A stretch of DNA of 60,736 bases, filler included, from Basidiobolus ranarum (GCA_040143965.1; 14 parts of 14 records of this genome joined end to end with filler, not necessarily neighbours in it); one strand, 5' to 3'. Numbered from the whole stretch's first letter, positions 8,433-56,501 are shown. Numbers and translations: made by a program. The notes: a model not told the origin generated them from the sequence alone.

Positions 8433-9010
8433 CCCCTAACAAAAATAAAATTGATTTGATCCGGATCGGATCCACCCTCCAAAATAGCAAAACCGTCAGA
8501 GAACTGTCACAATATTGCTGGCTTGCATTCTGCCAGGGTTTTTGATGGTGGGATGGCGGTTTCCTGACGGTATCTTAACGGTATTCATACATGTAAAAAT
8601 ATTGATCCTCAANNNNNNNNNNNNNNNNNNNNNNNNNNNNNNNNNNNNNNNNNNNNTTAATTAATTAANNNNNNNNNNNNNNNNNNNNNNNNNNNNNNNN
8701 NNNNNNNNNNNNATTCTCATAAATTTGTGAGTTGCATCCCAGCAATGGGTTATGATGTACCTCACAGTAAAGCCTGGTTGCTATATATATAAGCCATAAT
8801 ATCCAATGCATGTCAACACTACCTTTTCCTTCATGATCATTACCTCATCTCCAGAAATCCTAAGTACTTTTGGTTGATATTGAAAATATGCTTTGACTTT
8901 GAGTTCTATTTATAAGCACATTTTCTAACTTTTACATTAGATATGGAAAGTAAACGAGCTTGGGAGTCTACTAACACGAAGGTGGTGTGAATAAAGTAGT
9001 ATTACATAGT

Positions 9011-9189: not shown

Positions 9190-10972
9190 TCCAGTTATTG
9201 ATTCTTATCTTATTATGATATTTGGCACTCAAATACCCAAATACTTTTGAATATAAATATAACACAATCTTTAGAGCTAATATGTTCATTTAAATTACTC
9301 CAAATCCAGTCATCATCACCTAGTGATTGAACAGATAATATGAACAGCTCTAAACGGCTTGTCAAGTATCTTCCGCCGAAAAATAGACAATTTACGGCAA
9401 ATTATCTATCCGGAATAAATATCACTTGGTTGAAGGAGCCAATGCCTACCTCGGCGCCTTTACGTGATTAGTTTATACCCGTTATGGCTAAATACAGTTA
9501 GTAGAGTTAAAATGGACCTATTCTTTATATTACATCGGAGCTTAAAATTATACAGCAATTCAACTTCTATAAACAGATTACTGGTTTTTCATATATGGCT
9601 TCCGAATTACGAGCGAACCAATCATGGTGACGGTGTAACATCATGAAACAGTTTCAAGCTAAATTTGGCCCAATACGAGTGAAGTCCGGATTGGTCTTCG
9701 ACTGGGATCGTACATGAATCATAAAGATGATGACAATGACTATAAAGTTACATCAAATACAGTTTTTTAGGTAATAGAAAACTTCGATCTCAAACACATT
9801 GAAATGATGACAATGCGACCTGTCAAGCTTTTTTAAATTATGGATATTTGAATTACTGGAATTACTAAAAATCCCCAGGATTCCACCCAGCATGATGGCC
9901 CTATATTCTACTGGCAATATCGAGTTCAAGTGTTCAAACCTCTCTACAGACTTGTTCGCCTTGAGACAACAAAATTTTTTCAACTTAAATTCGATTTTTT
10001 TTTGACTTCCAAGGAGTACATTTCGAAGCTTGGTTGGCTTAAGGTTTAAGCTGATGGCAGAGTATCTATCTGTGCAACACTCATGAATCCACTCAGCGAT
10101 CTTCCAAATTCATATCCTCTCATATGTTTGTTTTCCCATTCTGGATCCTATTTCCACGGACTCGATCATTTGCTTCCCAGAACGCCTAAAACGTATACCA
10201 AAATGGTTCATTAATAATCACTGCAGGTGTTTCCTGATTATTTTCTACCAAGTACATTGATGTTTCCCATATTTATTTTGGCCGCTATCAGTACTCGTAT
10301 GTATGTCATGATTACGCCATTATTTAGCACACTAATCACTTAAATCTCAAAATTACTCTTTACGAATACCTATATTATGGGTAATCCAGCTTGTAACAAT
10401 TGAAATGACCTGCTTAGACACGGTGTATCAAAGAAATCCTTTTTGACTTTACGATGGTAATAAATTCGATAATAAAGTTTCATAGAATTGATCCCTAACC
10501 CTAAATTTTTCGATTGCTCTAGAGGTCTGCCTTCGATAATAGTCCTATATTTACTAAATCAAGAATGGGGAAGCAGATGTTTCTCTATATATTAGACCCA
10601 GTAAATGCCACTATTTTGGTACGTGGGTTGCTATAGGGTAATTGAAAATTAAATGTATTTAATCAAAAAAACCACTTTTTTTTCAGCATGCCAATGCCCA
10701 TATATATCGAAAGGGGCAATAGAGCGGCCATATTCACTCGAGATCAGAATAGCTGTCTATTTTAGTATGGGTAATCATCAGCAGGCTCAGTGTAGACATT
10801 CTGGTGTAGAGAATCCTAGCTGCCTATAAAAGTGAAGTGTCTGCTGATTTCTCTTCTCTTTACCTTCATTCCAGCTCACCTTCATTCCAGATCCCTTTGG
10901 ACAGCGCGAGCATCTTCAGCTCGTCCCACGTTCCACCTATAATTTCTAATTCTTTTCCCAGCAACAAACAGT

Positions 10973-17316: not shown

Positions 17317-18486
17317 NNNNNNNNNNNNNNNNNNNNNNNNNNNNNNNNNNNNNNNNNNNNTTAATTAATTAANNNNNNNNNNNNNNNNNNNNNNNNNNNN
17401 NNNNNNNNNNNNNNNNGTTTATTATCTTTATCATATTTGGTATCTCTATCTCTATATACCTAGCTATTTCATATATCATATATAAGTTAGTTAAGATCAC
17501 TTAGTCAAATATCACTTAACTGTAAATCAGAACATATACTATATATATATGGGAATAATGTGAGAATCAGCAGTTGCATATTGAAAATTTCAAACTTGTC
17601 TAAATTGGCCCAGAGCTAGCTCATTTTACTCCCACAGATGTTCTGAACATAACCCCAGTATTACGTTCCTATATTTCCACCAAAATGAATAAATGCTTCT
17701 TTTCTAGACAGTAAATAGTTGTCTCACAGCAGCTATTCACAACTCCACTTTTCAAAATTCCTTCAAATAGCCCATATTTTCCTAATATTGTTCATACCCA
17801 TGGTTGAACTCACATCAAACAAGAGTTTGTATCAATATCTTTGTCAAAGCTCACCACTGTATTACCATTGCTGAATTAACATTCTTCCAGCTATCTGGCA
17901 GATACCCTGCAACATTGTGCCACTGCATATTAAGTTCTTCCCAGATATATGCATGGTCTACACTTGACTGAACATCAAGTTGAATGTTCTTCTTCTGAAG
18001 CCACTTTTTGAATACTTGCACTGCATCATTCCCTTCGTACTTTTGAAAACACTCCTCAAGCACTTTTGTTATTTTTATATGTCCTGCAGTGTGACACTAC
18101 TAAGGGTGCTTTGTGGTGTTTGTGCAGCTTTTTGCTTGCCTTTAAGTTTGGGGCTAATTTCAACACTCTGAAAAGTACTAGCTGATGTTGGAGAGCTGTG
18201 AGTGTTATTTGCTGGTGTTTTGGCTTGTTGAGAGGTGCCAAGTGTTGGATAAACTTCCAAATTTAGCACTCCCAGCTGGTGAACCTGGTTCCTTGGTGAA
18301 ATTTATTGAAAGTCTGAAGACTTGTGGTACAAGCAATAATTCCCAGAGAGGAAAATATGGAGTATGGTGACTACATCTGAACACAAAGTCTAAGGCCAAT
18401 CAGTTGCTTGTATTGCTGAAATGCCAATGTACCATACATTGACAGACTAGGTTAAGGTTCCCTAGCAATATAGGCATAGCATACAA

Positions 18487-21824: not shown

Positions 21825-24800
21825 CCTACTGTTTTCTAAGATAAAATGCAAGTATTTCAAAGATGTAGTCATTTTGAAAGTCACTTGGATTTTTTAAGAT
21901 GTTGCCAAACTTGAAAACCATACCTTAGTTTCATTAATTTAAAAGCTTGGATAGTAATGCTATATATATTATAGCTTGGAAGTAAAGCTATTTGAAGGTC
22001 CCAGAGAATTAACAGCTAGCTATACAAGTACAGCTACTAGACAGACTTGTACAGCTTTTAGGAAACATTTGGACATGTTGCCAACTGGACTATAGTATTA
22101 TGACAAATTGCTATCAATTCTATGACACCCAACAGAATAAAATTTGAGAATTTCATAATAACATAAAGAATGATATCCATTTCTGGGACCATGCAATTCC
22201 TGGATGCAAGATCTTGCACATGTTTCTTAACACTATTCATGAATTATATATTGTTTGAACCATCAAACTTAGAGGTGTTTGGGAATTTTTTTCTGAGCAA
22301 TGGTAGTTGGGCAAGCTACTTTTATAAGCATGATGCCATTAGGAATTTGGATTCATTTTTGACAGTGTGAACATCTCTGTCTAGAACTAGTTACATGATT
22401 CTAGTCAGATATATTTTTACCTATATGGCTATTTGTTACTTGCTACAAACATTATGCAAGTTTCTTTATGTCTGGGCTTCTGAATTTAGTGTCAGCAACA
22501 GTACTTTCTCTTTCAAAAATTTAGACTTCTTCATGTGGCTCAACTACCACCCAGATATATTCACCTTCAGGTACAAGTTGCATCATGAATATTCATTCTT
22601 TAGTACCTTCATCATGCAATATTGGATTTTATTTTACTCATGGATACCATGTTGCAGGAACTGGTCATAACAAGCAGAGTATTTTAAACTTAGGGACATC
22701 TTGTGATTCTGCTTTACTTGCCTTAGTCTCAATGTAGTGTGTGTACTTGCATAGCATCAAAGTAAATCATTTGTTTAGTTAATTTAGGAGAATGTGTAAT
22801 AGAATATAATAGTTAATTCAGGGTATTAAAACTTACTTGCTTCATAGATATTAAGATATACAGAAAGAGAATATGGAGGCAATTGATAGATTTCTTTCTT
22901 GTTTCAGATTCATATTTCATGCCTGATTATAGCAAGATGATAAATAAAGTGCAGGTATCAATGTGCATGTACTGAGTATCAGGTGAAGAGGTAATATGGA
23001 CTTCTCATGTCCCAGGAGTAGTAATAAACATAACTGTGGGACAGTTTCTTGAAACCCATGAATTGGTAAACAGTAGTCCAGTTTTGGATTGATTAACTGT
23101 TACTAGCACCAGGATGTTAAAAACCAAGGATATCAGGAGGGTCACAGAAAATGGAACATATATCCTTTGAGATAGCATCATCTGACCTAATATGCAGATA
23201 CTATGATATATACTCCAAAACTGGTGATCATTAAGGCCCCAATCAGAAAATGGTAGCAATCGGCACTAGACCTTTCTATTGCATTAATGTAACATCTTTT
23301 TGAAATTGGAAATCAGCATACATATTTGTGTTGAACAAGAAGAAGTTCTGACAATAATAAGTAGTAATATGGTAATGTAGATAGAAGCAAGTTCAAGTCC
23401 AACAAGAAGAAATTACTACCAGGCTTATATTCTGAAGTATGCAAAAAGGGAGAGGTAAAGCAATTGGAGATTTATGAGGAGACTGAAACACTGTCTTTCT
23501 TCCTGATTCCTGGAATAGGCTCCAGGGTATAATGTAGTGAATTTATTGTAAATTTCTTAAATATTATGATATTAACGTAGAGAAGATCTCAGTATTTGGA
23601 TTCTGAAATGAAATATTTAGTAATATATGTATTCGAATCAGACACCAAAAACGAGCTTCAACAGGAAAGTTTTTACCAAGGAGGCTCACCAATTACTGTG
23701 TGGGCGAAAATTCAGACCACATAAAACCAGAACTTTAATTTTACTGGAATGTATCACATATTAAATATGTCCCAATTTTTCAAATATTCTTTACTGGTGC
23801 TAGCCTAGTAAAATCACCGTGTGATGGATACGACGTATCAGTAGTATATTTTCATCACCTGAATTATACTAAAGCTGAGTGTACCATGTGAATCAAAGCT
23901 TAGCATTGCCTATCTTTTACTTCACAGCGTTCAGCGGTCTGGAAGCTGATGGTCATATATCACTAGCTACATTAATCCTTTCGCATTTATGGTTGCTACC
24001 ACACAATATTTGTATAACATGCTGCGACTATAGTGGCTTTTATTTGTATATCGAAGGAAGTGACAACTAACCGAATATCCATTGCCATCTCCAAAGCAAA
24101 GAATCACTCTATACGAGAATAATATTCATATTCATACTCTAGCATCAGTAATATCAAATAAACGAATGAATGTAGTCACAGATTTAGAGATTAATTATGT
24201 CTTCAGGAACCCAACTATTGAACTAAACAAGTGCTCGATTGTGGACGAAAATTTCAGCACAGGCTAATCATTGCTACAAGACGAATCATTGGCTTGAGCG
24301 CATACGGAACCTCTAATGCCAGATCGACTACAGTTAATTTGGCCTCATGCTTGGCAGATGTTTGTAGTAAGCAGTATCCCTCATGACCAACTAAGGTTCT
24401 GACTCTCCCTCATAACAGAGTGGTCGTAACACACCATGTTAGAAACACACTGAGTCACCGTGTACAGGGATATTTAAGGATCGCTATTCGATGACTCAGG
24501 TGAACAAGTATCACATCACAAAATCAGCTTGATCTTCTATTTAGATTGTTTCCTTGGGCATGGGGAGTGCTGCTATGGGTCCAGAACAGTAGGTTAAGAA
24601 GTGCACGAGTTCTCTGAATCTGCCAAGATGCCCGTAGTATTAAGAAATCGAAGAATACATGCAGGGTTGATGAGTACGAGTAGAATAAGGGAAAGTGGAT
24701 TATGGATCTCAATTTTAAATGAATCACGGAAAGACCACCAGGCACCTATTTCGTCGGAGTAGAGTTACACAATATGCTTGTACTATGGCAATGGAATCTA

Positions 24801-39170: not shown

Positions 39171-40036
39171 CTCCTAGCTGCCTTTTTGTATGATATTCTA
39201 ATACCCTGTAGTTTTAAGAATATTGGATATTTCGCATCGGTATTAGACTCCAATATATTTAGACAATAAATTACTTTCATTTTGTATACTTCGTATGATA
39301 TAGTAGATATAAATCTTATTCTAGTCTTTAGCATCAATTACTTAGTTGGTCAGTTCAATACTCGTGTTCTTTTTCAGATTGAAGATAAAATATTTTCCCA
39401 CTTTTTCGCAACTAATATAAACTTTTTTATCTGAGGATGTTATAAGATAACACCCAGAATGAAAAACTTATCAAACAAGTTGGTCAACAGGATATCCTAT
39501 AGCTAAAAACTAAGAGAACTGAATTCTGTGACTTGGCATGTATATAAACAAGTCCTAGTCAATTTTTACTCTAACAATAAGATACGCACTATGTTAATCT
39601 CTAGCTTCATACTTTATTCCAAGTGAATATTTATCGAGAATGAAGCCATGACATAATGTAAAATTTCTGAATTTATCACAAAGTTACATAGGGGAGTATA
39701 CCATTTGCATTTGTTGATTTGTTCTTATTCCTGCTGGCTATATCGTTCATTTACAAATGTACACTTTTGCTATTAAAATATGGAATTCATACTTCAGCAA
39801 TTTAATCAGGATTAGGAAATATTTCTGTGAGAACAATGCTGTTAATATCCTGAGCTTTGGTGTTCAATTTGCATTCGTCTGCATACGATGGTTTCTATAT
39901 AAAGTGAGATCTGATTGATTAGTTGAAGTATTAAACTCTCTTTCATCGGCTCTCTATCATAGGACTCGAATTGTTCGGCTCCACCGACCATAGCAACTCG
40001 CGTCAAAGCCCTCATCAAATATATTCCAACCTCAAA

Positions 40037-41251
40037 ATGTACCTATCTTCCATTCAGTTGTTATTTTTTCTTTCTGCTGCCTCATTGGGCTCAGGAGCTA
40101 GTGTTGCCGAGAGAGCTTACTCACCTGCTCACAGTGGTGACCACTATGGGTTAAGAAACGATTGGAACAATATAAATCGCTCTGAATGGAGAGAAGACGA
40201 TGAATATGACAGCCGTCGTGATAGCAATGATTACAGACGCGACAATAGCTATCCACATGATTACGATTTTGATCATGGTGACTATGAACCGGGTGACAAC
40301 AGACACGAAGATCATCACGATAATTACAGAAATGCTTCTCATCATGATGAAGAGGATTGGGATAATGATAATAATAATGAAGGCAGTAGCAAAGGTAGGG
40401 ACAACTACTATAATAACAATGTCCCATCTGGAGGGAATCTTAGTGTAGGGAACGGATCATCGAACTCTGGCCCACCAGCTAGTGGAGGTGGCGGGGTGCC
40501 TAGCAGTCAAGAAAATGTTGATCCAGCGGCTGGAAATGACTCTGGTGAAACGGCAGGAAGTAAGGAGACCATGAAACCAGGAAACTTACCAGCTGGAGAT
40601 GCGACGAATATTCATGAGGATGATGACTGCCATAGAAATCTTGTCGATGGGCGTCTAAACGTACTCGACATCAAAGCTAAAGTTTGCCTTGGCTTAGATT
40701 TGGCTGGTAATATCCTCAATAATGACAGAGATACATCCTCTCCGGGAACTCCCAGTGGCCTCACTGAAGGATCGCCAAGTGGTGTTCCTTCGGGTACATT
40801 CAATGGCTTACCTGGAGGTTCAGCAGGTGATGCTACCCCTAATGGTTCTAACATTCCTAAAACACCAGGAGCAGCTGCTGGAGATACTGACAGCTTGGCA
40901 AGTGGTACACCTGGAGCTCCTAGTCCCCCAGGCAACCTCAGTAACCCACTCAACCGAGGTGGAGAGTCATCCGACACACACTCTGGTCATTGCAAAGATA
41001 TTGCTGTCAAAGTTCGTCAATTGTTGGGAATCAATGCCGATGCTGTTGTGTGCCTTGATAGGCTGATTAGAGTTGATACTCACGATGACTCCAGCAGTAG
41101 TCTAGATGATCTTTTGCCTGGAGTGTTAACTGGTGGTAACCACCTAAAGCAGCGACGCACGAACTGTGAGGTAATTAAGGCGCATGCTGACATACTTGGA
41201 ATCAAAGTGGATGCTATCATCTGTTTACCTGAGATTGTGATAAGATTATAG
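40037..41251 (+). CDS. Secreted low-complexity protein (D/H/R/Y-rich, then G/S/P-rich) with three Cys-pair hydrophobic motifs
   Basis: ATG at 40037 with signal peptide MYLSSIQLLFFLSAASLGSGA; TATATAAA near 39896; 404 codons; paralogs on both sides. Confidence 0.88.
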   Translation: MYLSSIQLLFFLSAASLGSGASVAERAYSPAHSGDHYGLRNDWNNINRSEWREDDEYDSRRDSNDYRRDNSYPHDYDFDHGDYEPGDNRHEDHHDNYRNASHHDEEDWDNDNNNEGSSKGRDNYYNNNVPSGGNLSVGNGSSNSGPPASGGGGVPSSQENVDPAAGNDSGETAGSKETMKPGNLPAGDATNIHEDDDCHRNLVDGRLNVLDIKAKVCLGLDLAGNILNNDRDTSSPGTPSGLTEGSPSGVPSGTFNGLPGGSAGDATPNGSNIPKTPGAAAGDTDSLASGTPGAPSPPGNLSNPLNRGGESSDTHSGHCKDIAVKVRQLLGINADAVVCLDRLIRVDTHDDSSSSLDDLLPGVLTGGNHLKQRRTNCEVIKAHADILGIKVDAIICLPEIVIRL

Positions 41252-41449
41252 CCGAAGTTACCCGTCATAAGATTTCTTTTATACCCTTTTGGTTTTAACA
41301 TTTACTTTTAATATTTTGATTAGACTCTTTGATTCACGTATACTAGAAAAATAAATAATCTGCAATTGCACGTTACTCTTAAGCATTGCTCTCTTGAAAT
41401 CATCCAGTCAGATATATTAAATTAGTGACCATATAACACCTTTAAATAG

Positions 41450-41833
41450 GGAAAATGATGGTCCTGTTGACACAGTCGGAAACAAGAAGATCACGAAACC
41501 TTGAAGCTCACCAGCTGCAGAGCAGGTGAACATTCGCAAAGAGAATGACGTACAGAAATCTTCATAGGCGAATAAATACCCTTAACACTAAAACAAAAGA
41601 TTCCCTTGTCTTGGATTTAGCGAGTAGAATTCTCAATAATTTCCGAAGTACAATATCTCCCGGGGTTCTCATCCGCATTAGCACACCTGAAAGCCCTGGT
41701 TACGATACCAAGTGTATTAGATTGTGGTGCTCACGAAAAACACCGATGGGAGAACTATCAGATGATTGAAGCGCATATTGATATACTTGGGGATGCAGCT
41801 GTATTTCTACTTGCGATTATGATTAGACTGTAG
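41450..41833 (+). pseudogene. Decayed partial copy of the 40037-41251 gene
   Basis: DNA similarity to 40530-40750 and to the 3' end (IEAHIDILG...IRL*), with frameshifts. Confidence 0.7.
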
Positions 41834-42387
41834 TTTTTTTGAGTGATCCTCTATACCCCCCCCCAATGAGTTTAATCATTAATAGCAATCAGTATATAGC
41901 TGATTATGGCAAAATAAATCACTAGCTATATGTACTGATGGATTTCTCTGATTATTGGTATACAGTAAATATTGTTCATGGCCCTTCCGGATACTAATGG
42001 AGCACTACCCATGGTGATATCTCTTGTCAAAGGATCAGCACTAGCTTCTATGAACTTGAGCATTGAATTTAATTTGAATTATTTAAATGCTGCTCTTTTG
42101 GTGTGAGGATGCACAGCATGTGCCTACGAAATCAGGTCGGATTTAGGAAATTTACCAATCGAAATAATAGTAATTCCCATCAGTAATTCCGTGGCTACTT
42201 GACATACACCTGCATTACCCATTTTATATATATATTCATAATAACCATCTAGGTGTCAAGTATCAAATTTTCATTCATCAGTTCTCTGTCCCAAGAAAAT
42301 TGTGTTTAGTGGTAGACCGTTTCTTGTTTCATTTCATCTACACATAGCAATTAGCATTAAGCATCATATCGAGTTAATAAGTACAAA

Positions 42388-43384
42388 ATGCACCTTTCTT
42401 CCGTTCAATTATTGTTTATTCTCTCTGCAGCTTCCGTAATCTCAGGAGCTAGCGTTGCTGAGAGAGAATACTTCCCTGTCCACAATAGTGACCGCCATAG
42501 ACTAAGAAACGATTGGGACCACAGTAATCGCCCCGGATGGAGAGATGATGATGATGAATATGATAATCGTCACGATGATAGTGATTACAGGCGCATTAGT
42601 AACTATCGTCATGATAAAGATAATGACAACGAACCTGAAAACTATAGACACGTAAATCGCCACGATGAAAATAGAAGTGAATATGATCGTAATAAGAAGG
42701 ATTCGGATCGTGAACGTGATCATGACTACAGAAATGACACAAACCATGATAAAGATGATGAGTACAGAGATGAACACAGAAAGCCCAATACTGGGGGTGA
42801 CAGTGGCTCACCAAACAACCATGATAGTGACAATCCCTCTAGAGATGGTGACCCGAAAGATACGCCTGGAAAAAAGGGAGGTACACCAAGTGGAAAAGAA
42901 ATGGACACTCCAGACCATGGAGGTGACGTTCCTGACCGAATTCCTGGTGGTATAAATGAGAGCTTCCCAAAAGATATTCCCGGTCGTATACCTGGTGACC
43001 TACCAAATGGCTTCCCTGGTCGTATTCCGGGTGGCGTACCGGGTGACCCACCAAATGGCTTCCCTGGTCGCATTCCAGGTGGCCTACCTGGTGACTTACC
43101 AAAAGATTTCCCTGATCGTATACCTGGTGATTTACCAAATGGCTTCCCAGGCCGCATCCCAGGTGGCTTACCTGATGACTTACCAAAAGATTTCCCTAGT
43201 CGTATTCCAGGTGGCTTACCCGGTGATCTACCAAATGGCTTTCCTGGTCGCATCCCAGGTGGCCTACCCGGCAACTTACCAAAAGATTTCCCTGGTCGTA
43301 TTCCAGGTGGCCTTCCTGGTGACCTACCAAATGGCTTCCCTGGTCGCATCCCAGGTGGCCTACCTGGTGACTTACCAAAAGATT
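42388..43384 (+). CDS. Secreted paralog with D/H/R-rich region and Pro/Gly tandem repeat; 3'-truncated by the contig end
   Basis: MHLSSVQLLFILSAASVISGASVAERE...LRNDW matches the 40037 paralog; the frame stays open to the contig edge. Confidence 0.88.
42930..43384 (+). repeat. Coding minisatellite, 48-nt unit GRIPGGLPGDLP(NG/KD)FP with some 36-nt variants
   Basis: About ten units visible in the translation, with synonymous variation between units. Confidence 0.93.
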
Positions 43385-45139
43385 NNNNNNNNNNNNNNNN
43401 NNNNNNNNNNNNNNNNNNNNNNNNNNNNTTAATTAATTAANNNNNNNNNNNNNNNNNNNNNNNNNNNNNNNNNNNNNNNNNNNNACTGCAGAACATCACA
43501 ATACTAGCGATCATTACACAGAATACAGTGTATGAAGGGTAGTTGACGTTGCGAGAGTCATGTGGACTCGCAACCTGAGTAGAATCTTGTTTAATTTCAC
43601 CCATTTGTAGAAGCAAAGATTAAGCGTTGGAATTGTTTTTATTGTTCAAACTTTGAGAGCTTGGTCCTTATAAGCAAAAGGTTGAGGTGAATCATTTACC
43701 ATTGAATCCAGGCGCCTCATCAGCACCCTATCCAAAGAAGGATCTTTGTGACGGTGGTTATAAGCCTTTTCGTCATAAGCAATGGTCCTTCCTCTTACTC
43801 CATCTTTCTTACCCCCCTGCGTACGTGCAAATCATGGCATACCATATGCATACTATTTCAGCCAACTGTGTTAGTGGTGAACGACCAAAATACTCCAATA
43901 ATTAGCACTAGCCACATTGTTGGAGTGCCACTCAAATCCGCAAATCAAACTGATTCTATATTTGAGATGAATTGAGAAGAATCTATACTTTGTTGGAAAA
44001 TTAATTTCCTATATTCTGGTATCGATCATGTCTAGATCAATCAATCCTACTTACTGGAATAATGGAATCCGTTGTTTTTTCAAAGCCCGCATTTATCTAA
44101 ATCAAGTATTGTTTTAGACTAATGTTACTGAGTACTTGAGGAACGCTTTACATCCACAAGTCATTACTTTCCCCTAAGTGGAGAGTAACCACCAAGTAAC
44201 CCTAGCGATGGTGATAACGGTAGCGATAATCTTGAATACGAATACCTAACAGTTGCTTCAACCGATAATTTGTACAAATACGCTATTATTACGCTAGTGT
44301 TCCAGATACCCTAACATTAAGCCAAAATGCCTCAACACACTAATGTTCCAACTGGTATTGACAGTGATCAGTATATGGTGGCAAGTAAATGCTACGATTT
44401 CATTGTGATCCCATATATTGACTTATTGAATTAAATCTCGATAATTGATGGTTGATGCTAATCTGATACAGTTAATTAGTTAATCGATCAATTATGGAAA
44501 GATCGATAATACTTGGCACATGCTTCTGTAGGGTTAGTTTCCTTTCTCATATAAATGTAAATTCCTAGTACTTCCGAAACTTGTGAAAGAAATACGAAAT
44601 TTTGAAGAAGTAATATTCTAAAGAGTTTCATATAACTATGACCTCTTCTAGAACGCACTTTGATATTGAAATATTTCGATCAAACATCGTGTATCACGCT
44701 TATCATATTTAAAGTACTTAAAGTGTTTCTAATATATATTTTCGGAATCTTTTTTGCTAACAAACTTGGTCATATATTCCTGAACATATGCCTACATATT
44801 ATTGTAAAATCATCATTCATTTATTAAGCCTAATTTCGGTGTGGTAACTGATTCTGAACTCTACAAATATTGAGCAAATCTTATGCTAATCTACTTCTAG
44901 TTTCTTACCTTGATCTTATTAAAATATTTAAGTTTAATACACAATAAATGTTATACTCTTTTGCTTAGCATAAATGTCGAGTTTCTACTAAATTCTCTCT
45001 AAGTCATAATTTTGACATCTTTTTTGCCAAGTCGCAGTGACCATTAAGCTTATTTGATTACCCTAACTGTCTCCTCCACTTCCAACTTCTTTAGCACACT
45101 ATTGTTGCGAATATTAAAATAATTGAACATTTATAATTC

Positions 45140-52064: not shown

Positions 52065-52515
52065 NNNNNNNNNNNNNNNNNNNNNNNNNNNNNNNNNNNN
52101 NNNNNNNNTTAATTAATTAANNNNNNNNNNNNNNNNNNNNNNNNNNNNNNNNNNNNNNNNNNNNAACTAAGAGATATTAGTACTACTGCAAACTAAGAGA
52201 TATTAGTACTACTGCAGCAACATCGAGTCTGAAATATATATTAGCTTAATTAATTCAGGATTAGAAGGTAGGATTAGAATGTATCTTAGTGAAATTCCTG
52301 TTCTCAGCATTTTCCAGGTCAAGTACGCTACCAATATCCATTGTCTCTTCGATTTTCACTGGTAGTACTATTGATGCTATATAATCCTATGTAAACTATA
52401 CTATTCTGAGGATTAGTTGTTATTAATCCGTACTGTAATTACGAATGATAGAAGAAAACTATCGTGAATTCGAAATCCATCGAAATATGGTTAATTCTTT
52501 CTTGGAAAAATATTT

Positions 52516-52528
52516 CAATCCCACAATT
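52516..52528 (+). promoter_or_regulatory. Candidate snRNA-type PSE/USE element CAATCCCACAATT
   Basis: At -68 to -56 from the inferred RNA start, conserved in both copies, and marks the 5' limit of the duplication. Confidence 0.5.
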
Positions 52529-52583
52529 AAATATCATCTCATTGTTTGGTCAAAAGCGAGTGGCGATTCTTACAAGAAAATCA

Positions 52584-52727
52584 ATTCTCAGTAGGAAACT
52601 TTTACCTGTTATTTTATAATAACAATTAGTTTTCAAATGATGTAATCTGGGCGACATTACTCAATTGTGATTAAAACCCCCCAGGTGAGCTCGGATTGCA
52701 ACCCGGGTAGTTCACCGCTTACTGATT
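52584..52727 (+). ncRNA. SNORD118: U8-like (SNORD118) box C/D snoRNA, copy 1
   Basis: Colinear U8 motifs TCAG..GGA, TTACCTGTT, ATTAG, box C ATGATGT (52637-52643), GTGATTAA, TTGCAAC, box D CTGA (52722-52725), plus four U8-like stems. Compared with human U8 from memory; ends inferred. Confidence 0.8.
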
Positions 52728-53051
52728 TGAGAAATCACCATTTTATCAAATCTTTTAATCTCAATATACATATATTACAAAACGTAGTGAAAAGTTAGAT
52801 TTCCTGTATATAGTCGTACTCAACATGCTATAACATTAGCGTAGAGTTGGGGCAAAAGGGATATGTAATCATTTCTGGTTATAATAAAAATCTCATTACT
52901 GATGAAACGAATTATTTACCCTTCACTTATCATATCACACTTTATACTATAAATACGTGAGAGATATGTGGGACTACATCAAATAGAAAAGCAGTCAAAA
53001 CATCAGCGCTTCAACTTTGTATTCAAGTGCTGGTTATACAATATGTCAAAA

Positions 53052-53133
53052 TGATGAGAGTGGGGTTCGAACCCACGCCTCCTGGGAGACTGCGACCTGA
53101 ACGCAGCGCCTTAGACCACTCGGCCATCTCACC
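53052..53133 (-). tRNA. tRNA-Leu(CAG)
   Basis: GGTGAGA/TCTCATC acceptor, CTGCG-TTCAGGT-CGCAG anticodon arm, long variable arm, GGTTCGAACC, TTTT terminator; 82 nt. Confidence 0.97.
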
Positions 53134-53768
53134 TTATACAAATCTTGGGATATAACCCATTTGACGGAGTAAATATTTTGGTATACTTCATTTAATGCAA
53201 AACATGACATGAGCATACTCTATAATGAGAACATGTTTAAGATTTATCCCTAAATGTCTACGATCTTAATATTATTAATTAATTGTACTATGGAATCCTC
53301 ATATGGATGCCATACATAGTTCAAACAGTTACCATAAAGGTATACATATATTTCCTTGTTCTCTTCAAATGCTTGTATAAAAGAAAAACACGCGAAGTTG
53401 AGGATTACGGTATTCGTTGGACACCAGCTTTAAAACAAGTATTCAATAGAATAATGGAACCCAAGATCCTAACTTAATCAGTAACATCTAGGCATTTTAA
53501 GCCAGTATTTTATTACACACTCTAGCGGTTGATGATAGTCCTGGAGACTTAATAACGATAAACTTTTGCAAGTATCTCTATCTTCAAATTTCTTTGCCTA
53601 TACTAATATTTGGATACAATTTAACATTGAATCTCAAATAAACATCTATGTAGAAATATTAGAGATTATTGAGTAATTATCACTTTATTATTCTAATTGA
53701 TTCTCTAGGGTTGCGTGCGTGCAGTGAGCTAGTCTCAGTATTAAGCTACGTGATCTAGTGCTTCTATT

Positions 53769-54251
53769 TTAGCTACGTTTGCTGTTTCTAATTAACCTTA
53801 GAGATCTTCTTCTCAGAGTCATGGGTGTTGCAAACTCTTGCGTCCAATAACTCCCACGAGCATCGTACGCGATTCCAATCTGCGTAAATATAGGGTTTAG
53901 GATATTGCTACGGTGTTCAGGTGAGTTCATCCAAGCATTCATTACTGATGCTTCATCACCAAATCCCGCTGCTACATTTTCTCCAACATTGCTCCACCCA
54001 TAACCAGTTTCACTGATTCGCTGTCCTAGTGATCTATTGGGTTCATCGTGGGTCATCCTCTGAACAGCGACTTGGTAGAGAGTATGTCTTTCTGCGGCGA
54101 CGGTGAGTCTTTGTTCTATAGTCAACGCTGGAATGCCGATGTTTTGACGCTGTTGATTCACTAAAGCTAGGAGAGTATTGGCGTCAAAAGAAAGCGCAAC
54201 CTTCGCGAAAATGAACAAGGTTAAGATTAGGTGAAAAGTTGAGAATTTCAT
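53769..54251 (-). CDS. Secreted CAP/SCP-domain protein (YkwD-like, Cys-free)
   Basis: ATG at 54251 with signal peptide; LVNQQR, MTH, GENVAAG, WMNSPEHRSNILNP, YWTQEF. Confidence 0.93.
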   Translation of the reverse strand: MKFSTFHLILTLFIFAKVALSFDANTLLALVNQQRQNIGIPALTIEQRLTVAAERHTLYQVAVQRMTHDEPNRSLGQRISETGYGWSNVGENVAAGFGDEASVMNAWMNSPEHRSNILNPIFTQIGIAYDARGSYWTQEFATPMTLRRRSLRLIRNSKRS

Positions 54252-55412
54252 GGCAGAAGAATTTAATGACAATCTATGGAACATATTGGACATTTATATA
54301 CTTGTTGACATCTTCATCGTTAAGGAGGGAGAGGGAATATATGAGAATTATTTGATGAATACAAGTGCACCATCTAATCAAAACTGATTGCTATGTTGAA
54401 TGCTCACTCCATCTAATGAGAACTGATTGCTATGTTGAGTATTCCAATCAATCAACCCGAACCACCAACACTGACCAATCCGTTACAATAATGTGGCTGT
54501 AAAGCCAATGCGAAAGAGTAGTCTTTAAGTAAAGCCTTTCGTTACTTTATCTATAACCCCACAACACACCGCATTTTTAAGTTCCATGCTCTTTGTATCA
54601 CCATTCAACAGAACAAATATAGAAATACATAGAATGGGAACATTGCCCACAGCCAATTGTTTTGATTTAGTTATTTCCATTTGTAGCTAATTGCTATAAA
54701 TGATAATAGTAAAATTTGTTTGGAGGAATAAACCCTAATCCTAAGGATGAAGGAATTTACAACGTGGCTTTAGTAGCACACTCGGCATACACCATAAGAG
54801 GAGTTTCATTGATAGTACTGAATAAGGTCTAGTATTTATAATTTGCAGAGATTGGCCAATCATTCAAGCTCCATAAATAGCGCCAAGAATCAACAAAATT
54901 TCCACGCTGGTTTTGCTAAATGGAATTGGCTGTACTAATCTTTATACCAATTTAGATTACAAAAGATATGAATTTTTTTTATCGAACTATTGTAGGGAAA
55001 TTAATATTGGCTTGGAGATTTTCAATAGGCAACTCTGAAATCTGAATAGAATCTCTACTCTAGTTCCATTTTAAATACCTACCTAGAGGTACAAATCCAT
55101 CCTTAACTACTATGTCACTTCAACATTTATGCACCTTATACTTTTTCAAGACTTTATCGCAGTATGGGTGGCAAAGAATGTCCTTTAGGACACCTAGCCA
55201 TATCCTATTGAGCCAAAGAAAAAAATACTAAAGTTGTAGTTTAGCAGAATATCTTATAGCATGATCAATGATTATTAGTTAAATTCGTTAATAGTTGAAC
55301 CAAGTCGTATATGTTAACATTACTCCATCCACTCTGCCTAATTCTTAGGGATTGATGTACTCTGCTCTATCAAGAAACAAATTGGTGATGGAATTATTTG
55401 ATTAATGCTCTG

Positions 55413-55425
55413 CAATCCCACAATT
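55413..55425 (+). promoter_or_regulatory. Candidate PSE/USE element, copy 2
   Basis: Same CAATCCCACAATT at the same distance from the RNA. Confidence 0.5.
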
Positions 55426-55480
55426 GAACATTATCTCATTGTTTGGTCAAAAGCGAGTGGCGATTCTTACAAGAAAATCA

Positions 55481-55624
55481 ATTCTCAGTAGGAAACTTTT
55501 ACCTGTTATTTTATAATAACAATTAGTTTTCAAATGATGTAATCTGGGCGACATTACTCAATTGTGATTAAAACCCCCCAGGTGAGCTCGGATTGCAACC
55601 CGGGTAGTTCACCGCTTACTGACT
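55481..55624 (+). ncRNA. SNORD118: U8-like (SNORD118) box C/D snoRNA, copy 2
   Basis: Identical to copy 1 through box D (box C 55534-55540, box D 55619-55622). Confidence 0.8.
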
Positions 55625-55945
55625 TGAGAAATCTCTTTTTATGAAATCTTTCAATCTCAATGTACGTATATTACAAAATGTAGTGAAAATCTAGTTTTCC
55701 TGTATGTAGTTGGACTTAACATGCTATATTATCCTGGAGTTAGAGTAAAAGGGATATGCAGTCATTTCTGGTTGTAGTAAAAACATCTTCACTGATAAAA
55801 GGAATTATCCACCTTTCACTTTTCATGTCACACTTTGCTATAAATACGTGAGAGATATGTAGAGCTACATGAAATAGAAAAGCAGCCAAAACATCAGGCC
55901 TTCAACTTTGTATTTGTATTCACATGCTGGTCGTACATGTCAAAA

Positions 55946-56027
55946 TGATGAGAGTGGGGTTCGAACCCACGCCTCCTGAGAGACTGCGACCTGAACGCAG
56001 CGCCTTAGACCACTCGGCCATCTCACC
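55946..56027 (-). tRNA. tRNA-Leu(CAG)
   Basis: Same cloverleaf as 53052-53133 with one substitution in the variable arm. Confidence 0.97.
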
Positions 56028-56501
56028 GTATACAAATCTTGGGTTATAATTGTTATTACCAAAAATAGGATAACAATAAAAATCCAAATTAGCTTGTACC
56101 AAGTGATTTTAAGGTTGAATTATTACAAAGCATTGATTAGACTTCCACCAGAATTAATATTGTGAATATTGTTCGAACTTTACTGTAAATCTAGCAATAA
56201 TGGCAGTCTGTGGCTGATGTGCTTATCCTATGTTACATGTTGATTTATAATTTCTGCTGTTGCAAGAATTAGGATAACAATGAAAATGCAAATTATGCAC
56301 TAAAAGGTATGGTTCTGAGAACACACATTCTCAGAACTTAAATATCCTATATATATATCAACGTATTAACATATGAATAAATTGAAGTTCTTAAGCTATT
56401 TNNNNNNNNNNNNNNNNNNNNNNNNNNNNNNNNNNNNNNNNNNNNTTAATTAATTAANNNNNNNNNNNNNNNNNNNNNNNNNNNNNNNNNNNNNNNNNNN
56501 N

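Follow-up and report, generated by a model that had tools for sequence, protein, structure and literature searches.

A duplicated U8-like box C/D RNA gene in the fungus Basidiobolus ranarum

Animals depend on the small nucleolar RNA U8 to complete their large ribosomal RNA. U8 is described as being found 'only in metazoans', with no functional homologue in yeast (PMC10068337, PMC9196750), and base-pairing with the start of 28S rRNA is attributed to it (PMC9196750, PMC2943600, PMC3273799). Whether a fungus can also encode an RNA of this kind is the question raised by a locus of Basidiobolus ranarum, in which an earlier note had recognized an apparent U8 (SNORD118) gene. The locus lies in the window, that is, the whole 60,736-nt stretch of DNA analysed here. 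The premise of that note, that U8 is specific to animals, is itself outdated, since the Tetrahymena RNA TtnuCD26 has been proposed as 'the first U8 outside metazoans' (Andersen & Nielsen, 2011; PMC3273799). The U8-decapping enzyme NUDT16 is reportedly without a fungal orthologue (PMC12210691), a point against a fungal U8. The note's impression that no fungal U8 had been described agrees with the literature searched on U8/SNORD118 in fungi and on snoRNAs in Basidiobolus, which covered papers rather than Rfam's own U8 taxonomy and yielded no such RNA. Neither any of five U8 phrases nor the name 'Basidiobolus' occurs in the main text, as distinct from the supplements, of 'The fungal snoRNAome' (PMC5824354). 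What PMC10672711 names as a fungal 'U8' is a UTP15-domain protein and no RNA.

The candidate RNA, hereafter copy A, is built from the following elements.

52584-52736, plus strand: U8-like box C/D RNA, copy A (Rfam match 52585-52726; end at about 52736 taken from the kept 3' tail)
52587-52609, plus strand: 5' domain, UCAGUAGG...UUUUACCUGU, placed on positions 1-27 of the U8 model with high posterior
52589-52608, plus strand: first hairpin, CAG-UAGGA / UUUUA-C-CUG, as read in the sequence
52607-52624, plus strand: stem-loop 5' of box C, UGUUAUU / AAUAACA (GUUAUU/AAUAAC core at 52608-52623)
52630-52637 with 52726-52733, plus strand: 8-bp stem flanking boxes C and D, its 5' strand ending on the first base of box C
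52637-52643, plus strand: box C, AUGAUGU, as read in the sequence
52647-52651 with 52680-52684, plus strand: stem CUGGG / CCCAG, with UGAUUAA inside its 28-nt loop
52667-52674, plus strand: GUGAUUAA, inside the CUGGG/CCCAG loop
52668-52674, plus strand: UGAUUAA, LSm-motif-like, aligned to invariant loop letters of the U8 model
52685-52715, plus strand: 3' hairpin with the cap AUUGCAAC (UUGCAAC at 52696-52702)
52722-52725, plus strand: box D, CUGA, as read in the sequence
52726-52736, plus strand: kept tail after box D, UUUGAGAAAUC, 3' strand of the C/D flanking stem
52741-52744, plus strand: T-run 3' of the tail

Every box and stem that had been listed for this stretch was found in place on the plus strand, as was the extension of 53 nt that precedes box C and begins with UUCUCAGUAGGAAACUUUUACCUGU. 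The elements follow one another in the order 5' UCAG...UUACCUGU, hairpin, box C, UGAUUAA loop, UUGCAAC-loop hairpin and box D, a single stem-loop preceding box C and a further two separating it from box D. The stretch is non-coding, as had been claimed: of the stop-to-stop frames that overlap 52165-53060 and reach 25 aa, 26 in all, the longest over the RNA measures 55 aa. The neighbours of copy A are an F-box-like ORF ending near 52196 and a tRNA-Leu(CAG) on the opposite strand. A pair of N runs at 52065-52164 interrupts the F-box-like ORF; the window holds 26 such runs, 44 nt each, paired and recurring every ~4350 nt, and they look like withheld stretches rather than assembly gaps.

The order of these elements is that of U8. 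Copy A aligns to the Rfam U8 model (RF00096) over its full extent, positions 1-135, with a score of 24.6 bits, and matches the model's conserved blocks UCAG, UUACCUGU (UUAC-GU), AUGAUG, UGAUUAA, UUGCAAC and CUGAU. The UGAUUAA in the loop after box C, a predicted LSm-type motif, matches the model at the level of sequence, and the UUGCAAC of the 3' hairpin aligns to the model's uuGCAAC loop. When the interval 52400-52900 (501 nt) was scanned with all families, copy A reached E = 0.021 and U8 was the best of 7 Rfam matches at E<=10; no other C/D family among the remaining 6 did better. TtnuCD26 (RF02302) scored 16.9 bits (E 7.9) on the same interval, with good alignment in the 5' ~25 nt and box D only, and the other C/D matches were snoR28 (16.0 bits, opposite strand, upstream) and sR33 (13.4 bits). 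The U8 score nevertheless stays below the gathering score of 41 bits, and a scan of the window at gathering thresholds returned two tRNAs only and no U8. The earlier assignment thus holds for the best family and the full-length extent of the match and not for the family threshold, for which reason the RNA is termed U8-like and not a filed member. Across the window and 4227 families, the E-values are 2.5 for copy A and 5.8 for a second match, copy B, neither significant alone; simple arithmetic (2.5/4227) gives a U8-only E of ~6e-4 per window for copy A. Two further C/D matches in the window are likewise sub-threshold, SNORD44 at 22918-22977 (plus strand, 21.4 bits) and snoR101 at 17955-18002 (plus strand, 21.1 bits); these may be additional unannotated snoRNAs or chance.

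Copy B is absent from the earlier note and surfaced in the whole-window Rfam scan. It belongs to a duplicated unit with these features.

52517-52583, plus strand: block kept 5' of copy A, at which the duplicated unit begins; putatively either a compact promoter or a 5' leader
53052-53133, minus strand: tRNA-Leu(CAG) of unit A, convergent with the RNA and last gene of the unit 52516-53155
55414-55480, plus strand: conserved upstream block of copy B, from alignment of the two copies
55481-55633, plus strand: U8-like box C/D RNA, copy B (23.0 bits with the Rfam U8 model, whose positions 1-135 cover 55482-55623)
55946-56027, minus strand: tRNA-Leu(CAG) of unit B, within the unit 55413-56049

The module of ~640 bp (52516-53155 and 55413-56049) thus occurs twice, 2.9 kb apart with a CAP-domain gene in between, and comprises in order the upstream block, the U8-like RNA, a ~315-nt spacer and the convergent tRNA-Leu(CAG). 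Upstream of ~52516 the two copies are 38% identical, and homology is absent. Identity rises to 16/19 over 52517-52535 and to 48/48 over 52536-52583, is complete over the RNA at 52584-52725 (142/142), and amounts to 10/11 over the tail at 52726-52736 and 81/82 over the tRNA-Leu. The only substitution in the RNA and tail falls at position 52726, T in copy A and C in copy B. By contrast, the spacer has accumulated 47 substitutions in 306 aligned positions together with 15 gap columns (321 columns in all), against no change in the 190 nt made up of the RNA and the adjoining 48 nt on its 5' side. Were the RNA to change as fast as the spacer, its 142 nt would stay unaltered with a probability of ~5e-11. 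An RNA and upstream block left unchanged beside a diverged spacer argue for a constrained gene instead of a chance cluster of motifs. One conserved block corresponds to a U8 alignment of full length, detected without reference to the duplication, and the other is a known gene, so that the former is best read as a functional RNA gene as well. A real, constrained and duplicated small-RNA gene is therefore very probable. The spacer contains one further fully conserved stretch, with TATAAATACGTGAGAGATATGT, at about 52949-52970.

The boundaries of conservation also bear on the ends of the gene. Homology between the copies starts just 67 nt upstream of the RNA, so the promoter should be compact or internal. 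The block opens with AATCCCACAATT, whose exact occurrences in the window are 52517 and 55414 only, and which we take to resemble the plant snRNA upstream element. At the other end, conservation of the tail suggests a mature 3' end near 52736 and not at 52727, and a T-run follows the tail in copy A and copy B alike.

Could the conserved block be something other than an RNA gene? It might represent a gene-conversion tract, or a cis-regulatory or mobile-element part of the tRNA-Leu module, with the likeness to U8 arising by chance. The whole-window E-values are insignificant on their own, the two U8 matches are not independent of each other, and one conversion tract could yield the identity; gene conversion could indeed account for part of the identity of the 200-nt block. 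Yet the conserved block agrees, to within ~10 nt at its 3' end, with a full-length U8 alignment in whose detection the duplication played no part, and the module's second conserved block is a bona fide tRNA gene. Furthermore, the 8-bp stem of copy A exactly flanks boxes C and D. Among 37 RTGATG...CTGA pairs spaced 50-120 nt apart in the whole window, the flanking stem exceeds 2 bp in copy A alone and measures 2 bp or less in the other 36; the stem of copy A lies outside the Rfam U8 model. In copy B the first pair becomes A.C and is followed by 7 pairs. The fold of the RNA speaks in the same direction, as the whole 144 nt reach -37.2 kcal/mol (z -2.78), a stability equalled by 2 of 200 shuffles. 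Taken together, these observations make a locus without an RNA gene quite improbable.

Taken stem by stem, the folding gives a mixed picture. The stem-loop 5' of box C (-3.4 kcal/mol) is clearly non-random, none of 200 shuffles equalling it, and the first hairpin (-1.2 kcal/mol), which 138 of 200 shuffles equal, is possible but weak. The CUGGG/CCCAG stem and the 3' hairpin (-11.1 kcal/mol) are ordinary, with 30 and 22 of 200 shuffles, respectively, as good.

A different concern is the origin of the DNA. Basidiobolus inhabits the guts of amphibians and reptiles and U8 is otherwise an animal RNA, so that an ordinary animal U8 on a contaminating host contig would present a simple explanation. However, genes at both ends and between the copies match Basidiobolus best. 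For the pyruvate kinase encoded at 166-1677, identity is 91% to Basidiobolus meristosporus and 82% and 80% to B. ranarum; the next proteins of usual length are a second one from B. meristosporus (74%) and then those of Mortierellomycota (~72%), just above which scores an 833-aa sturgeon record that bears a contamination flag (58% identity across 68% of the query). For the CAP-domain protein between the copies, the best named matches are B. ranarum at 77% and B. meristosporus at 69%, and the top 15 named matches after the window's own protein all come from these two species. In addition, the U8 score lies far below those of animal-like metagenomic U8s (39-46 bits). Neighbouring genes of such Basidiobolus character exclude animal contamination for practical purposes, and we attach next to no weight to it. 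The CAP/SCP-domain gene (53772-54293, minus strand) encodes a secreted protein of a family expanded in Basidiobolus; beyond Basidiobolus, it is most closely related to proteins of the oomycete Pythium insidiosum and to bacterial YkwD-like proteins, which hints at horizontal transfer. Elsewhere in the window, at 39935-43440 (plus strand), two adjacent long ORFs have signal-peptide-like N-termini and repetitive Asp/Asn/His-rich and Pro/Gly-rich (GRIPGGLPGDLP...) tracts.

Granting a fungal gene, is its product a U8? In metazoan U8 (SNORD118, RF00096), an RNA of ~140 nt, box C is internal, after a 5' domain of ~53 nt, and box D lies at the 3' end (PMC2943600). The Basidiobolus RNA has the same layout. 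It also shares with metazoan U8 the 5' UCAG...UUACCUGU block and the arrangement of hairpins, a single one ahead of box C and a further two separating it from box D, of which the first holds UGAUUAA in its loop and the last UUGCAAC. It departs from metazoan U8 in several respects. Its stem sequences are unrelated, and it scores 24.6 and 23.0 bits where the cut-off is 41. The loop carrying UGAUUAA is far larger (28 nt) and closed by a distal 5-bp stem, and the RNA adds the 8-bp flanking stem and the conserved 11-nt tail to a model that ends at CUGAU. The proposed rRNA-pairing segment takes in the 3' strand of the first hairpin, and the gene sits within a duplicated tRNA module.

Unrelated stem sequences with pairing kept would be expected of a true homologue, and the earlier note had leaned on such a pattern; the comparative data do not establish it statistically. 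RNAalifold on 5 sequences, including four metagenomic U8s, placed 25 pairs, 3 of them compensatory, with a covariation term of +1.2, which is uninformative, and copies A and B do not differ inside stems. The metagenomic sequences came from a three-motif pattern that matched at least 119 loci, of which 7, chosen by eye and with a simple filter, were examined with Rfam; U8 was recognized in four of these 7, with scores of 39.2-46.1 bits. Copies A and B were in turn made into a covariance model (R1), which scores copy B, one of its own source sequences, at 199 bits. With default filters it had no match at E<=10 among the 119 listed metagenome loci, including the four Rfam-verified U8 loci; with filters off and on 401-nt pieces, it recovered the U8 positions of L069 and L025, at no more than 8.8 bits (E 0.044) and 9.4 bits (E 0.032). 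Against the U8 of L069, the hairpin before box C and the 3' hairpin align hairpin to hairpin with different letters. Reciprocal model support is accordingly weak. No fungal relative appeared among the metagenome matches listed, and contigs L116 and L025, being gene-poor, are probably animal and uninformative on fungi. Loci L015/L032 and the L042 family looked like U8 by eye and were set aside, L015, L042 and L055 having no U8 at E<=1. A U8 search of 5 prokaryotic assemblies with eukaryotic rDNA (18.9 Mb) gave a best score of 17.6 bits and no U8, which serves as an empirical yardstick for the scores of copies A and B. L025 is a gene-poor eukaryote contig from a marine metagenome, on which a U11 minor-spliceosome snRNA gene (89.2 bits) and the U8 (39.2 bits) lie 1.5 kb apart (8756-8883 and 10365-10495).

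The score below the Rfam threshold, the weak reciprocal search and the uninformative covariation would also be expected of a genuine Basidiobolus box C/D snoRNA other than U8, an orphan or guide peculiar to the lineage, whose 5' extension is long and whose U8 motifs arose by chance or convergence, all the more as part of the score is supplied by generic boxes C and D. Two observations speak against such an RNA. No Rfam snoRNA family outscores U8, and the next in rank, TtnuCD26, is itself a U8 candidate. Moreover, UGAUUAA and UUGCAAC occupy U8's loop positions and are accompanied by the 5' UCAG...UUACCUGU block, none of which is generic to C/D RNAs. A non-U8 snoRNA is therefore considered unlikely. 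That the RNA is of the box C/D class is strongly favoured, and its boxes, 5' block and loop motifs suggest that it is probably a divergent homologue of U8.

Divergent U8 candidates from other organisms provide a useful frame. TtnuCD26 of Tetrahymena thermophila is, like the Basidiobolus RNA, a non-metazoan candidate (PMC3273799). Its 5' end, UCAGUAGG..UUACCU, aligns base for base and with equal spacing with that of the Basidiobolus RNA, and complementarity to the LSU 5' end has been claimed for it (PMC3273799). The ciliate RNA differs in being 98 nt long and, as described, in having neither a hairpin before box C nor an LSm motif (PMC3273799), and the Basidiobolus RNA falls far short of the 90-bit cut-off of its family. 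Possession of the hairpin and LSm-like motif missing from the ciliate RNA as described brings the Basidiobolus RNA closer to the animal form. A second precedent is CeR-2 of Caenorhabditis elegans, which is similarly divergent and was known by its architecture, 26S 5'-end complementarity and LSm-like motif and not by score, and which also has multiple gene copies (PMC2943600). CeR-2 has experimental support of its own, as it bears a TMG cap and localises to the nucleolus and its mutant is defective in processing (PMC2943600), whereas the case for the Basidiobolus RNA is one of sequence.

If the RNA is a U8, its 5' domain should be complementary to the start of the large-subunit rRNA. As targets, 54 eukaryotic LSU loci (110 kb) that contaminate prokaryote assemblies were used as surrogate rDNA and not the organism's own. 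The segment 52587-52609 forms an almost continuous duplex of -23.0 kcal/mol with the fungal-type LSU 5' end of one surrogate locus, L146 (...GACCTCAAATCAGGTAGGAGTACCCGCTGAA...), in which 52598-52608 pairs with CAGGTAGGAGT and 52588-52592 with GCTGA. Of 16,774 window tiles, 177 (~1%) equal this duplex. Complementarity to fungal-type 28S 5' ends is thus suggestive (p~0.01, surrogate rDNA). Perfect complements of at least 11 nt across the 54 loci fall only within the first ~60 nt of the LSU and include box D. The matches next to box D, to LSU CUCAAAUCAG (10 nt) and AUCAGUAAGCGG (12 nt), were dropped as firm evidence because both contain box D, because the 12-nt match requires an LSU variant not seen together with the fungal-type 5' end, and because such lengths turn up by pooling targets: in a control with 39 LSU ends, 12-mer matches arose at 4 places in the window. 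Both are also weakened by the one substitution of copy B.

The same surrogate loci bear on the idea of a lineage-specific guide RNA. With box D excluded, just 7 nt upstream of it (CCGCUUA) pair with the LSU in the 54 loci, and no guide-like antisense of at least 10 nt was found directly upstream of box D in this surrogate rDNA, which may count further against a methylation guide unrelated to U8.

In the surrogate loci the 3' region of 5.8S (CCTGT..GAG) co-varies with the LSU 5' end (CTC..ATCAGG), and UACCUGUU of the U8-like RNA resembles the CCTGT..GAG strand of 5.8S, a likeness that would fit the idea that the RNA acts as a stand-in for 5.8S. Other sources of rDNA were less rewarding: IMG/VR, queried with an LR0R-based pattern, gave 2 chimeric contigs without an LSU 5' end, and the ITS3 primer had 0 matches. 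These two 'viral' contigs, L120 (6300-6348) and L121 (2520-2607), end in a piece of eukaryotic LSU rRNA whose abrupt start coincides with the LR0R site and is preceded by unrelated sequence, and they are probably assembly chimeras. As for the surrogate loci themselves (L122-L175), at least 54 contigs in a one-genome-per-species prokaryote collection carry 5.8S-ITS2-LSU rDNA, often of fungal type, and this is contamination of bacterial assemblies and MAGs.

By analogy with vertebrate U8, a mechanism can be proposed for the Basidiobolus RNA read as a U8 homologue. Transcription would be driven by a promoter within the 67 conserved upstream nt or by an internal one. The core C/D proteins would assemble on the kink-turn made by boxes C and D, and the 5' domain would open and pair with the first ~35 nt of 25S/28S in the pre-rRNA, the very segment that is later to pair with the 3' end of 5.8S. 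In so doing, the RNA would chaperone ITS2-proximal folding and 5.8S/25S maturation, as vertebrate U8 does, until a helicase removed it from the pre-rRNA. That it acts on the 25S 5' end in this manner seems to us slightly favoured. A related purpose in early 60S assembly is served in budding yeast by a cis-acting ITS2 hairpin together with the chaperone snoRNA snR190, which time the pairing of 25S domain I with 5.8S and chaperone 25S folding (PMC9196750); neither is homologous to the U8-like RNA, and yeast is described as having no functional U8 homologue (PMC9196750).

What would such an RNA imply for the history of U8? The earlier note took U8-dependent processing to predate the animal-fungal split, which is plausible; an origin before the split was, however, already implied by the published ciliate candidate. 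Loss of U8 in yeasts is something that we infer. The full scenario, in which the RNA is a true functional U8 orthologue, U8-assisted maturation is ancestral to animals and fungi, at least one early-diverging fungal lineage has kept it and ITS2 has replaced it in yeasts, is a serious but tentative possibility that falls somewhat short of being probable. The compact ~640-bp module of U8-like RNA and tRNA-Leu, its promoter of at most 67 nt and the T-run suggest that transcription and 3'-end formation may differ from those of the animal Pol II snRNA-type gene. This RNA escapes detection at the usual Rfam cut-offs, and the known sets of snoRNAs in early-diverging fungi therefore probably have gaps.

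The sole non-animal U8 candidate found in print is that of a ciliate (PMC3273799), and a fungal U8, if true, would bridge the gap from animals to ciliates. Together with the ciliate candidate, it would make U8-assisted 5.8S/25S maturation probably much older still. The absence of U8 from yeasts would then become a datable loss within fungi, and the fungal RNA would offer a natural comparison for the replacement of a trans-acting chaperone by an ITS2 structure.
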